Of a DNA stretch of 64,000 nt, positions 37,757 to 56,513 are shown piece after piece. The translations under genes were made by a program, and so were the position numbers. The notes beneath the pieces are model-generated. The model did not search any database, had not been told where the DNA came from, and saw only the letters and a program-made list of their open reading frames with translations. The DNA lies in the NCBI GenBank assembly GCA_965224025.1, contig OZ245033.1, positions 704,001-768,000 of the forward strand. The letters run 5' to 3'. This stretch comes from Candidatus Multivorans sp. (GTDB lineage: Bacteria; Acidobacteriota; Thermoanaerobaculia; Multivoradales; Multivoraceae). How positions within the stretch are numbered: position 1 is the first letter of the stretch; each line of letters starts with the position of its first letter.

Positions 37757-37830
37757 CGGGGCGTGGCGCAGTCTGGTAGCGCACCTGCCTTGGGCGCAGG
37801 GGGTCCTCAGTTCAAATCTGGGCGCCCCGA
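37757..37830 (+). tRNA. tRNA-Pro(TGG)
   Basis: Acceptor cggggcg/cgccccg, anticodon arm cctgc-cttgggc-gcagg, T-loop ttcaaat; no encoded CCA. Confidence 0.93.
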
Positions 37831-37873
37831 TATCGCTCGCATGCCCGGGCCTCGGCTACCCTGTCGCTTTCAC

Positions 37874-37950
37874 CTGCCTGTAGCTCAGATGGATAGAGCG
37901 GCGGCCTTCTAAGCCGCGGGTCGGGGGTTCGAGTCCCTCCAGGCAGGCCA
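37874..37950 (+). tRNA. tRNA-Arg(TCT)
   Basis: Anticodon arm gcggc-cttctaa-gccgc, ggttcgagtcc, CCA end. Confidence 0.95.
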
Positions 37951-37979
37951 GTCGCCTTGGAGTTCAGTCGGATAAGTCT

Positions 37980-38056
37980 GGTGGGTGTAGCTCAACCGGT
38001 AGAGCACTTGATTGTGGTTCAAGTGGTTGGGGGTTCAAGTCCCCTCACCCACCCCA
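37980..38056 (+). tRNA. tRNA-His(GTG)
   Basis: Anticodon arm cttga-ttgtggt-tcaag, G-1 present, C discriminator, CCA. Confidence 0.95.
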
Positions 38057-38083
38057 TGTCCGTTTTCGTTTCCTCCCATTCAC

Positions 38084-38160
38084 GCGCCCGTAGCTCAGCT
38101 GGATAGAGCGACGGCCTCCGGAGCCGTAGGTCAGGGGTTCGAATCCCTTCGGGCGCGCCA
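38084..38160 (+). tRNA. tRNA-Arg(CCG)
   Basis: Anticodon arm acggc-ctccgga-gccgt, ggttcgaatcc, CCA. Confidence 0.95.
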
Positions 38161-38338: not shown

Positions 38339-39424
38339 ATGACGACCACCGAAACGACACCGTCCAGACCCCTCCGAATCCTCCTGGTTCGCCTTTCGGC
38401 AATCGGCGACTGCCTGCACGCGGCGCCGGTGGCGGCGGCGCTTCGCCGCGCGCATCCGGGGGCGTTCATCGGCTGGGCGATCCAGGAGCCTGCCGCGACC
38501 CTCTTGCGGGGCTGCCCCGGCGTCGACTGCTTTCATGTCTACCCTCGCCGGGGCCGCGGCATTGCGGCGCGGCTTGAGGCGTTCCGCCGCTTTCGCCGCG
38601 AACTCAGAAGCTGCCGCTACGACGCTGCAATCGATGTCCAGGGTCTCACGAAGAGTGGGCTGGTGGCTTGGTGGAGCGGCGCCCGGCAGCGAGTGGGCTT
38701 TCGCGGTGGACCGGCGATGGGCAGCCGGGAGCTGAATGCCCTGTTTCTGAACCGACGCTTCGCCGTTGACCCTGCCGTGACCCACGTCGTCGACCGCAAC
38801 CTGGCGCTGGTCCGCGCCTCGGGATTGGCCGGCAAGAAAGCCCCGATCGCGGAGTGGCGGCTGCCCGACTACGCAAAGCCCGAGGCCCTCGTCTTTCTCG
38901 AGCGCCACGGCCTGGGCGCCGGTGGCTATGCGGTGGTATCGCCCGGGACGATCTGGCGCACGAAGCACTGGCCGCCGGGCCATTTTGCGGCCGCGGTGCG
39001 GCGCTTGGCGCGGGAGCGCGGCTTGCCGGTGGTCGTCGTCTGGGCGGGCGAGGAGGAACGTCGGGTGGCGGAGCAGATCGTGGCCGGCGCCGGGGATGGC
39101 TGGCCGATCCTGCTCGCACGGCCGACCGATCTGCGCGAGCTGGCGACCCTGTTGCGGCACGCGGCCCTGTTCCTGGGTTGCGATTCCGGCCCAGCCCATC
39201 TGGCCGCTGCACTCGACGTGCCGTGCGTATCCGTGTTCGGGCCGACGGATCCTGCCCGCAACGGCCCCTACGGGCCGCGGTCCATCGCCGTGCAGATCGA
39301 CCAGCGGCTGGAATGCCAACCATGCTGGCGGCGCACCTGCAGCCGCGGCGACTTCGCGTGTATGGAGCGGTTGGATGCCGACCAGGTCGTGGAGGCTTGC
39401 CTGAGAAAGCTCGACACGGCCTAG
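38339..39424 (+). CDS. GT9 ADP-heptose:LPS heptosyltransferase (WaaC/WaaF-like)
   Basis: ILLVRLSAIGD, DVQGLTKS, K.WP, G.DSGPAHLAAAL, FGPTDP. Confidence 0.9.
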   Translation: MTTTETTPSRPLRILLVRLSAIGDCLHAAPVAAALRRAHPGAFIGWAIQEPAATLLRGCPGVDCFHVYPRRGRGIAARLEAFRRFRRELRSCRYDAAIDVQGLTKSGLVAWWSGARQRVGFRGGPAMGSRELNALFLNRRFAVDPAVTHVVDRNLALVRASGLAGKKAPIAEWRLPDYAKPEALVFLERHGLGAGGYAVVSPGTIWRTKHWPPGHFAAAVRRLARERGLPVVVVWAGEEERRVAEQIVAGAGDGWPILLARPTDLRELATLLRHAALFLGCDSGPAHLAAALDVPCVSVFGPTDPARNGPYGPRSIAVQIDQRLECQPCWRRTCSRGDFACMERLDADQVVEACLRKLDTA

Positions 39425-39690
39425 CTCGCGCGCGCCGCTTCGCGGCCGCGCGTCTGATGCCGGCCGGAGGCCGGCGTACCTGTACCTTTCTCGGGTGGAT
39501 TCTGGTGGGTCGTTGAGAGAGGTGGAATCGACCAGTAGCCGTCGCGGCTGCGGTAGCTGTGGGAAACCGGCTTGCCGGTTTTCCAAGGTCCGGCGGGAAA
39601 CGGTCTGCCGTTTTCCGCGGGACCGGCAGCTTCCGCAGCCGAGACCGCCGGTCGGTTGCGTCTCCGGCCTGCCGGAGTCACTGAAGGAAA

Positions 39691-39845
39691 GTCGGCAAGC
39701 AGCCAGGAGCGACCACCGGCGTACTGTGCTTCGAGCACCTGGCTGGGACCCGTGCCCTGGCTGCTTCGCCGCGTTGGACGCCCAGTGGAGAGTCAGTGCC
39801 TTAGAGCACCAGTACAGGTACGGGCAGGCAACGCGGCATGCCGAC
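39691..39845 (+). ncRNA. Bridge RNA of the IS110 element (target- and donor-binding loops)
   Basis: Outer stem gtcggca/tgccgac; stems aagcagccagg/cctggctgctt and gccgcgttg/caacgcggc enclose guides matching the target and the donor junction; 5' end uncertain. Confidence 0.88.
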
Positions 39846-39880
39846 CAGGCAACACTACCGCAAGGGAGAAGGAGGACGAG

Positions 39881-41134
39881 ATGACCAGGACGTGGTTCGT
39901 CGGCGTGGACTGGGGGTCCGAGACCCACCACGTGTGTGTGCTGGATCGGGACGGCAAGGTGAGGGGGGAGCGGGCGTTCGACCACAGCGGCAAGGGACTT
40001 GCCGCCATGGCCGACTGGCTCCTTGGACATACCCGACCGACGTCTCCGGACGAGATCGGCGTCGCCATCGAGGTGCCGCACGGACCGGTGGTCGAGACTC
40101 TCCTGGAGCGGGGCTTCGCCGTGCATTCGATCAACCCCAAGCAGCTCGACCGCTTCAGGGACCGCTTCTCCGTCGCCGGCGCCAAGGATGACCGCCGCGA
40201 TGCACGGGCGCTCGCCGCCGCGCTTCGCACCGACCCCGAGTGCCTGAACCGCGTGCAACCATCCGATGCAGCCATCGTGATGCTGCGCGAGGTGTCCCGC
40301 GGCCGCAAGCAGTTGGTCGGCCAGAAGAACCGCCTGGAGAACCAAGTCCGCGACCAGATCTGGCGCTACTACCCGCAGTTTCTCGCCGTGGTCAAGAACG
40401 AGGTGTCGGCGCCCTTCGCGCTGGCCTTGTGGCGACTGGCGCCGACCCCCGGCAAGGCTCGACGGCTGCGCGAAGCCACGCTCGCCAAACTGCTCAAGGA
40501 ACACCGCATCCGGCGCCTGACCTCCGCCCAACTGCGCGATCAACTGCGGGCCGAGCCGATCGCCGTTTCCCCGGACACCGTTAAGGCCGCCGTCGAACAC
40601 ATAGGACTCCTCCGGCCGGTGCTCGACACCGTCTGCCGCCAACTCGCCGACGCCGACAAGCGGCTGGAGCGGATGACCCGCGCACTCGAGGCCCCGGCCC
40701 AACGGGAAAACGACGACGACTCCCCTAAGCCGAGCGACGCCGCCATCCTCAGGTCGCTGCCCGGACTCGGCAAGGTCGGCCTCGCCACCCTGCTCTCCGA
40801 GGCCGATCAAAGCCTGGGCCGCAGAGACCACGAGGCACTGCGTTGCCTCTGCGGAGTGGCGCCGGTGACCGTCAAGTCCGGCAAGAAGCTCATCGTCATG
40901 CGACGACTCGCCGCCAACGAACACCTCAGCGACGCCGTCTATCACTGGGGACGAGTCGCCATCCAGCACGACCCGATCAGCCGCGCCAAGTACGACGCCA
41001 TGAAAGCCCAGGGAAAGACGCACGGACGCGCCATCAGACAACTCGTCGACCGACTCCTCGGCGTCGCCTGCGCCATGCTCCGAGACCGAACTCTCTTCGA
41101 CCCCAACAAGCGATGCCATGCCCAGGTCGCATGA
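39881..41134 (+). CDS. IS110-family recombinase/transposase (417 aa)
   Basis: RuvC-like DEDD (VGVDWG, AIEVP, KDDRRDA); Tnp20-type region LPGLG...GVAPVTVKSG with the catalytic Ser; RBS aaggagg. Confidence 0.96.
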   Translation: MTRTWFVGVDWGSETHHVCVLDRDGKVRGERAFDHSGKGLAAMADWLLGHTRPTSPDEIGVAIEVPHGPVVETLLERGFAVHSINPKQLDRFRDRFSVAGAKDDRRDARALAAALRTDPECLNRVQPSDAAIVMLREVSRGRKQLVGQKNRLENQVRDQIWRYYPQFLAVVKNEVSAPFALALWRLAPTPGKARRLREATLAKLLKEHRIRRLTSAQLRDQLRAEPIAVSPDTVKAAVEHIGLLRPVLDTVCRQLADADKRLERMTRALEAPAQRENDDDSPKPSDAAILRSLPGLGKVGLATLLSEADQSLGRRDHEALRCLCGVAPVTVKSGKKLIVMRRLAANEHLSDAVYHWGRVAIQHDPISRAKYDAMKAQGKTHGRAIRQLVDRLLGVACAMLRDRTLFDPNKRCHAQVA

Positions 41135-41292
41135 CCTCCCTGACCCGCAGCAGCCTCCCCAAAACACACTTGCTAAAGGGTGGAGAGTCCCAGCGGTAGG
41201 GCGTCGGCGTGGCGGGAACCTCTACTACAGACATCATGGCTCGCTGCGGTGGATACGGCTCGGGCGGGCCACTGCTTGGCATACTTCGATCG

Positions 41293-41547
41293 ATGCACGA
41301 CGAACCCGCCGCCGATCCGCCGCTAATCCGCCCGCCGGCGTTCGACCGGATCACTCTCCGGCTGCTTGTGGCGGCGCTGGTCGCCGGTGCGCTGACGGTG
41401 CCGATCGTCATGTCTTGGCGTGACTTCAGTTGGCTCATGGCGCTCTCCAGTGCCGCCGGTATCGCTCTCCTGATCTTCTTCAGCGGCCGTGCCGCGCGGG
41501 TCCTGAACTTCGAGTGGCGCCGGCCGCCCTTCGAGCGGGAGGACTAG
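41293..41547 (+). CDS. Small two-TM hypothetical membrane protein
   Basis: Two hydrophobic helices; ends 3 bp before the NUDIX gene. Confidence 0.6.
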   Translation: MHDEPAADPPLIRPPAFDRITLRLLVAALVAGALTVPIVMSWRDFSWLMALSSAAGIALLIFFSGRAARVLNFEWRRPPFERED

Positions 41548-56422: not shown

Positions 56423-56513
56423 GGAGGGGTGGCTGAGTGGTCGAAAGCACCGGTCTTGAAAACCGGCGTGGGTTGATAGCCCACCGTGGGTTCGAATCCC
56501 ACCCCCTCCGCCA
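56423..56513 (+). tRNA. tRNA-Ser(TGA)
   Basis: Anticodon arm ccggt-cttgaaa-accgg, long variable arm, ggttcgaatcc, GCCA end. Confidence 0.96.

Follow-up and report, generated by a model that had tools for sequence, protein, structure and literature searches.

A predicted IS110-group bridge-recombinase element and its cognate bridge RNA in an uncultured relative of 'Candidatus Multivorans'

What kind of mobile element lies between positions 39481 and 41190 of the window (the whole stretch of 64,000 nucleotides analysed here), and does its long non-coding left end encode an RNA that directs its insertion? The host is an uncultured bacterium near 'Candidatus Multivorans' (Acidobacteriota, Thermoanaerobaculia), and its genome (G000) comprises 5.14 Mb in three contigs. 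Positions 39481-41190 (+ strand) were identified as an IS110-group insertion sequence of 1710 bp, with the right-hand CC included in the count. Judging from sequence, we regard it as very probable that this is a bridge-recombinase element accompanied by its cognate bridge RNA.

The left junction (39471-39485) reads ccggcgta-CC-tgtac, and the right junction (41180-41194) reads gtggagagt-CC-cagc. The half-sites at the two junctions and the short repeat beside them are as follows:

39471-39480, + strand: left target half-site (8 nt) and core CC (39479-39480), in the 3' flank of a GC hairpin resembling repetitive extragenic palindromes (REP-like)
39481-39485, + strand: right donor half-site tgtac, which the right donor guide (RDG) recognises along with the core
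41180-41190, + strand: left donor half-site (9 nt) and core CC (41189-41190), read in the sequence
41191-41194, + strand: right target half-site cagc (cagt, cagc or cggt in other copies)
39485-39489 (ccttt) and 41175-41179 (aaagg), + strand: subterminal inverted repeat of 5 bp flanking the donor site, read in the sequence

The ends of the element (tgtacc... and ...gagtcc) are not inverted repeats, as expected of a family member. With 400 nt (39481-39880), the left end exceeds the right end of 56 nt (41135-41190), and it contains the RNA; both, like the short subterminal repeat, are expected in the IS110 group. The parts of this RNA are the following:

39662-39677, + strand: 5' stem-loop (CTCCGG, loop cctg, CCGGAG), from the fold
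39691-39845, + strand: bridge RNA core, from the fold and from a match of 168.4 bits to covariance model R1
39698-39766, + strand: target-binding arm with outer stem, left target guide (LTG, 39716-39724), linker U (39725), hairpin (39726-39738), right target guide (RTG, 39742-39747) and handshake bases AC (39748-39749)
39768-39837, + strand: donor-binding arm with outer stem, left donor guide (LDG, 39785-39794), hairpin (39796-39809), RDG (39812-39818) and handshake bases UA (39819-39820)

The LTG (ccggcgtac) is the left target arm followed by the first core C, and core and right target arm together, read as their reverse complement, give the RTG (gctggg). In the donor arm, the LDG (gtggagagtc) repeats the final nine bases of the element and the first core C, and the RDG (gtacagg) corresponds, in reverse complement, to the core and the five bases with which the element begins. 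Of the core, only the first C is matched in Watson-Crick fashion by the two left guides, the target loop continuing with U (39725) and the donor loop with A (39795); both core bases are covered by the two right guides. The apical hairpins of both arms are of the GTGC..GCAC type. The initial annotation had named these junctions, cores, guides and hairpins from the letters, and each string was found in its place. The layout had also been likened to that of an IS621-type bridge RNA, and the guides do match target and donor half-sites in the published strand pattern. In 20,000 mononucleotide shuffles of 39481-39880, the four guide strings never occurred together; singly, the LTG 9-mer was found in 73, the LDG 10-mer in 10, the RDG 7-mer in 601, and the RTG 6-mer in 5,593 shuffles.

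The minimum-free-energy fold of 39691-39845 (-79.2 kcal/mol, z = -4.14, none of 200 shuffles as good) recovered the two loops proposed earlier for the left end and added an outer helix to them. It consists of two arms of like design, each with an outer stem, a guide-bearing internal loop and the apical hairpin. The arms are separated by 1-2 nt and are enclosed by the outer (closing) helix, 39691-39697 paired with 39839-39845.

Relatives were collected by scanning an alignment of homologues against species-representative genomes, which gave 80 loci. The upstream region aligned in 78 of them; L088, with a disrupted bridge-RNA region, and L099, with its gene near a contig end, were dropped, and the window plus these 78 make up a set of 79 elements. 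For alignments and model searches, the 80 loci were reduced to a subset or to single representatives of each distinct upstream sequence. The nearest relatives (91-92% amino-acid identity) were found in 'Candidatus Multivorans' metagenome-assembled genomes (Thermoanaerobaculia, Acidobacteriota), followed by other Thermoanaerobaculia, many Vicinamibacterales, and then scattered Rhodothermales, Alphaproteobacteria, Gemmatimonadota, and others.

Base pairs were counted on a MAFFT alignment of 38 distinct sequences. The structure was taken from the window's own fold minus guide-guide pairs, because RNAalifold (MAFFT alignment A2) recovered the target-arm stem and both apical hairpins but mis-paired the donor-arm stem. 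On the MAFFT alignment, 83.7% of the cells were paired, compared to 76.0% in shuffles (0/500 reached the observed value) and 30-43% with slid partners. Changes on both sides were seen in 26 of the 45 pairs, a number likewise reached by 0/500 shuffles. In the outer stem of the target arm, 11 of 13 pairs were compensatory and 95% of cells were paired. Covariance model R1, built from the trimmed alignment, matched the RNA once in 62 of 63 sources with 92-172 bits; L088 was missed, and L099 was found. On the model-fitted alignment, which leans towards the model structure, 88% of cells were paired and 29/45 pairs were compensatory, and the outer stem of the donor arm reached 95% of paired cells with compensatory changes in 7 of 9 pairs. 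The RNA has two internal-loop stem-loops after a 5' stem-loop, and its stems covary, as expected of a bridge RNA.

For the closing helix, 77% of cells were paired and 6/7 pairs were compensatory on the model-fitted alignment, with the same leaning towards the model; on the MAFFT alignment only 63.9% were paired, partly owing to misalignment. The sequence of this helix differs between clades. Duplex folding of its two strands gave at least five pairs in 37 of the 38 sequences, although the shuffle control is weak in such GC-rich RNA, with only 17/38 beating 95% of shuffles.

Do the guides follow the insertion sites? Across the relatives, hardly any variation is seen in the donor guides and a great deal in the target guides; loop 2 was likewise conserved and loop 1 variable according to Durrant et al. 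(PMC11208160, section 6). The ends of the related elements were located solely from their own donor guides. The reverse complement of the element's own RDG was present upstream of the bridge RNA in 79/79 elements, and its own LDG 9-mer downstream of the gene in 71/79. For 62 distinct guide/site combinations, the contiguous match between guide and cognate flank had a mean length of 7.0 nt (left) and 6.1 nt (right), as opposed to 2.6 and 2.55 nt for non-cognate pairs. When guides were permuted among the 32 target-guide classes (one representative each), neither side attained its actual total in any of 10,000 permutations, and the guide/target covariation suggested as a check by the initial annotation is thus borne out. 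Between clades, the left guide is displaced by one base with respect to the core, and the score allowed for this shift. The CC core was kept in all 32 classes. Guide matches of the kind expected of a bridge RNA are therefore found in the window, in the other copies and in the relatives. [quoted passage not shown]

In 41 of 48 distinct combinations, the dinucleotide that follows the RTG is complementary to donor positions 6-7, immediately left of the core; as a control, it is complementary to the element's own target in 0/48. The first base after the RDG complements target position 7, also just left of the core, in 47/48, and four different bases are involved. From these counts, the bases after the right guides are predicted to represent the handshake design of bridge recombinases.

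The gene that follows the RNA and its ribosome-binding signal are located as follows:

39871-39876, + strand: Shine-Dalgarno-like AGGAGG, 4 nt ahead of ATG 39881
39881-41134, + strand: recombinase gene, 417 aa, catalytic residues D10, E64, D104, D107, and S333

The protein has the N-terminal RuvC-like DEDD and C-terminal Tnp domains of the IS110 family, matching PF01548 (DEDD_Tnp_IS110; 1.5e-32, residues 7-165) and PF02371 (1.1e-12, residues 288-371). It also matched NCBIfam NF033542, 'IS110 family RNA-guided transposase', with 174.3 bits against a cutoff of 140, and its proposed identity as an IS110 recombinase was thereby confirmed. A HMMER search of solved structures yielded IS621 (8wt6, E = 2e-11) and ISCro4 (9t56, E = 1.5e-9). 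D10, E64, D104, D107, and S333-G334 align with D11, E60, D102, D105, and S241-G242 of IS621 (chain numbering offset 2), residues that form the composite active site in the account of Hiraizumi et al. (PMC11208158), and no variation was seen at them among 20 aligned homologues. Between the two aligned blocks, residues 132-261 of the query face 133-171 of the IS621 chain. This gap indicates that the approximately 91 residues by which the protein exceeds IS621 (417 vs. 326 aa) lie in the coiled-coil region, which is predicted from the gap in the HMMER alignment to be roughly 90 aa longer than its IS621 counterpart.

Of 8,000 scored candidates, at least 7,735 were homologues, and most of the 120 listed were 413-430 aa long. 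By sequence comparison, a size of 417 aa is the norm in this large clade and sets the present copy apart in nothing. The CC core and the 417-aa enzyme, which the initial annotation had put forward as features of this ortholog, are both present; they do not distinguish it, since CC occurs in every relative examined and most listed homologues have an enzyme of similar length.

Twelve full-length copies with 97-100% identity were found by genome search, in addition to several fragments and two extra copies lacking approximately 75 nt of the left end. The latter two, G000:C1:598851-600480 (L013/L025) and 3853425-3855042 (L014/L023), miss element positions ~62-136 within the leader hairpin. No second IS110 lineage was found in this genome. 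Whether other copies lie in unrelated sequence had been set beforehand as a check on the loop-1 guides. All 12 full-length copies share a left flank, ...CCGGCG(T/C)ACC, and a right flank, C(A/G)G(C/T), and this is the sequence specified by loop 1.

The empty 14-bp site CCGGCG(C/T)ACCCAG(C/T) occurs 43 times in the genome, and 17 left and 15 right occupied junctions were counted. CC is present once in each of the 43 empty sites and on both sides of every copy, as expected for a 2-bp core. The left half-site forms the 3' arm or flank of a perfect GC hairpin (at least 5 bp) in 14/17 occupied and 30/43 empty sites, against a background of 294/2000 CCGGCG sites. This association identifies the target as a REP-like repeat, as known for IS621 and ISPpu10. 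In the genome as a whole, the repeat family consists of a GC hairpin such as GCCGGC-loop-GCCGGC followed by GCACCCAGT; its 43 unoccupied copies carry the exact 14-bp target, and some units stand in tandem (e.g., C1:298626 and 298661).

Guide base 39722 is polymorphic among the copies, U or C, and mirrors both target variants. The T variant was commoner in occupied (5/17) than in empty sites (3/43; Fisher p = 0.035), a post hoc comparison of small numbers that was given no weight.

Promoter-like hexamers were found by consensus scan at the two ends of the element:

39483-39488, + strand: -10-like hexamer TACCTT, at the third base of the left end, which would be paired with the -35-like box only in a circle
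41170-41175, + strand: -35-like hexamer TTGCTA (a TTGnnA box starting 21 nt before the right end)

In the circle, the two would be spaced by 17 nt, and their position was the same in 45/45 distinct junctions.

Several points speak against the reading as a bridge-recombinase element with its cognate bridge RNA. The fit between guide and own flank was exact in 10 of the 15 copies with a left end; in three, a guide U stands opposite a target C:G pair, which is wobble-compatible, and in two, a guide C stands opposite a T:A pair, which gives a C.A mismatch. The resident guide thus does not always fit its own site, and one has to suppose either action in trans by RNA from a different copy or subsequent mutation, a history that is probable for some of the copies. 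Many of the 79 elements are related to each other, which inflates the covariation counts. A circle or tandem junction had no match in the assembly. A simple consensus scan detected no sigma-70-like promoter in the linear element, the pair at the junction is weak (7/12 to the sigma-70 consensus in the window copy), and its -10-like box overlaps bases that are conserved anyway as the donor site. Finally, Rfam 15 contained no family matching 39300-41400 at E <= 1 except for a chance miRNA match (E = 0.75), and at the gathering thresholds the whole window returned five tRNAs only, with no curated bridge-RNA model among the matches. 

The element could also be a recently dead relic, one with the architecture of a bridge-RNA insertion sequence whose RNA is no longer made or whose enzyme is defunct in this host. 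Besides the missing linear promoter, such a relic would account for the broken copies (an early frameshift in L012, a C-terminal frameshift in L004, L013, and L014) and for a decayed solo fragment of the bridge RNA. Against it stand the 417-aa frame, kept intact in 10 of the 12 full copies, the near-identity of the copies, the intact catalytic residues, and a polymorphism at 39722 that mirrors two target variants. We therefore consider a relic quite unlikely. The C-terminal frameshift shared by L013, L014, and L004 leads to a 436-aa frame. [quoted passage not shown]

The region taken for RNA could alternatively be the N-terminal coding part of a longer transposase, as the frame is open upstream of ATG 39881. 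The open reading frame extends from TTG 39572 to 41134 through the bridge RNA (520 aa), and a database protein of this genome (P0001) was called at 623 aa. However, most of the 120 listed homologues align from residue 1-5, AGGAGG precedes ATG 39881 by 4 nt, and the region evolves by compensatory base-pair changes, with loop-1 guides varying freely along with the flanks. Compensatory changes and guides that track flanks are unlike coding sequence, and we give this explanation hardly any credence. We give equally little credence to a reading of the guide matches as inert DNA remnants without a function in RNA, left for instance when nested insertions copied target and end sequences into the left end. 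Fragments of the target, a repeat abundant in the genome, may turn up anywhere, but the four guides keep fixed positions and strand orientation in 79 elements, in 32 target-guide classes matching their own flanks, and were never found together in the shuffled sequences.

For the bridge-recombinase element, a course of transposition can be proposed by homology with IS621. The element would be excised as a circle, with its abutting ends forming the donor site. The recombinase would assemble on both loops of the bridge RNA, D10, E64, D104, and D107 providing the RuvC-like site and S333 the nucleophile. Target and donor would be cut beside the CC core and their top strands exchanged, aided by the handshake bases after the right guides. 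Resolution of the Holliday junction would leave the element inserted into the REP-like hairpin repeat of the host. That this element is active, and that it is intact and reprogrammable as the initial annotation proposed, we infer from its sequence.

How does it compare with known systems? IS621 of E. coli (PDB 8WT6) has the same domain order (RuvC-like DEDD, coiled coil, Tnp), and the five catalytic residues align. Its bridge RNA, as described in the cited accounts, is likewise located in the left end upstream of the gene, where a 5' stem-loop precedes a target loop and a donor loop of like design. The published layout places the 5' stem-loop first and has the 3' side pair with the top strand over 4-7 nt (PMC11208160, section 6), and the present element fits it. 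Left guides likewise equal the top strand and right guides complement it, handshake bases follow the right guides, and the 2-bp core lies in a repetitive palindromic target repeat. LTG A50-U58 and linker U59 of IS621, in the numbering given there, correspond to the 9-nt LTG and the single U (39725) found here. The IS621 protein is only distantly related (E = 2e-11 over two aligned blocks) and considerably shorter, its core is CT instead of CC, and the element described here has a 400-nt left end with an extra leader of about 170 nt. In IS621, the two loops are described as joined by a linker (nt 98-110), with loop ends ~80 A apart, whereas here a closing helix and 1-2 nt are found.

ISCro4, or IS622 (PDB 9T56; 10.1101/2025.05.14.653916), is described as having the same 14-nt two-strand recognition and handshake guides, and its Tnp domain gave a match at E = 1.5e-9. 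It is reported there as a close relative of IS621 with a CT core and activity shown in human cells, while the present element is known from sequence. The insertions of ISPpu10 of Pseudomonas putida (10.64898/2026.03.19.712850), according to its description, are all in one intergenic repeat, the GC-rich 5' extension of which forms a stem-loop; the hairpin association observed here is similar. The role of the target hairpin is experimental in ISPpu10 and an association here, and the two are likened by description and not by sequence. The IS1111 group shares the DEDD recombinase and RNA-guided targeting but differs in having the RNA in a long right end and subterminal inverted repeats of 7-17 bp (PMC11208160, section 12), compared with the left-end RNA, the 56-nt right end, and the 5-bp repeat of the present element. 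In the relatives of the present element the subterminal repeat is shorter still, with ends mostly AAAnG and CTTT or CCTT.

The closing helix and the longer coiled coil raise the question of whether this clade represents a structural variant of the bridge-recombinase machine, beyond another orthologue. We put this forward tentatively and consider it rather unlikely on present evidence. In the IS621 complex, the corresponding loop ends are ~80 A apart; should the closing helix stay formed in the active complex, a single RNA could not feed both loops into one IS621-like synapse. The clade would then require two RNA molecules per synapse on geometric grounds, or else assemble a synaptic complex of another shape, bridged by its longer coiled coil. 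For IS621, Hiraizumi et al. (PMC11208158) suggested that two RNA molecules serve one synapse. The passages of PMC11208160 and PMC11208158 that describe IS621 do not mention a closing helix. A full-text literature search for a closing helix or three-way junction in bridge RNAs or IS110 elements returned no relevant paper; figures and supplementary tables, including the Durrant orthologue tables in which the clade, with its core and structures, may be listed, were outside its coverage.

The remaining features concern the leader and the surroundings of the element:

39523-39660, + strand: long imperfect leader hairpin, fold -95.1 kcal/mol

In this clade, the left end starts approximately 200-210 nt ahead of the RNA, compared to approximately 40 nt in most Vicinamibacterales relatives. 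The leader stretch 39533-39667 recurs with 84-88% identity in four places having no IS110 gene (L018-L021, G000:C1 near 3672584, 4048787, 2474161, and 1301954). The leader module of ~125-135 nt consists of two GGGAAACCGG-type hairpins within a long stem. Elsewhere, it is located at the end of a different repeated element with tandem terminal repeats, and an IstB gene (PF01695, 2.6e-77; IS21-type) adjoins one of these solo copies of the module. A piece of one mobile element seems to have been taken up by the other.

Contigs from three public runs (X1, X2, and X4) of two studies join position 39418 to 41268 through 11 other letters, and about 7% of their flanking positions differ from the window. 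This divergence, together with the join, indicates a related strain whose intergenic region contains neither the element nor the adjoining repeat units. A cluster of four tRNAs is located at 37757-38157, approximately 1.3 kb upstream of the element, and a fifth tRNA at 56423-56510 (Rfam RF00005, 61-69 bits).

The kind of element is already known: mechanism, loop layout, handshake bases, REP-type targets, and junction promoter have been published for IS621 and its relatives. The class of bridge recombinases was described in 2024 and predicted in thousands of elements (PMC11208160), and section 12 of that paper gives bridge RNAs as predicted in 85.7% of ISfinder IS110 elements. As biology, the element is an ordinary example of a mechanism published in 2024, and its peculiarities are modest: a closing helix with a 1-2-nt linker, a longer coiled coil, and a long leader shared with an IS21-type element. 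For genome annotation, it illustrates that gene callers can absorb a bridge RNA into an over-long transposase open reading frame.

Bridge recombinases are under development as programmable tools for DNA insertion, inversion, and excision, for which diverse natural orthologues are the raw material. The element described here comes from a little-studied uncultured acidobacterial lineage, where it has recently expanded and is mostly intact. It offers a natural record of specificity: the genome has 60 target sites (43 of them empty, the other 17 counted as occupied left junctions) and two guide alleles, and the relatives show 32 guide classes. The CC core, the longer coiled coil, and the closed three-way RNA architecture are points to compare with IS621 and ISCro4. 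The closed RNA architecture together with the coiled coil, the CC core, the occurrence of different guide alleles in the same genome, and the leader shared with an IS21-type element may be of interest to specialists in this family.

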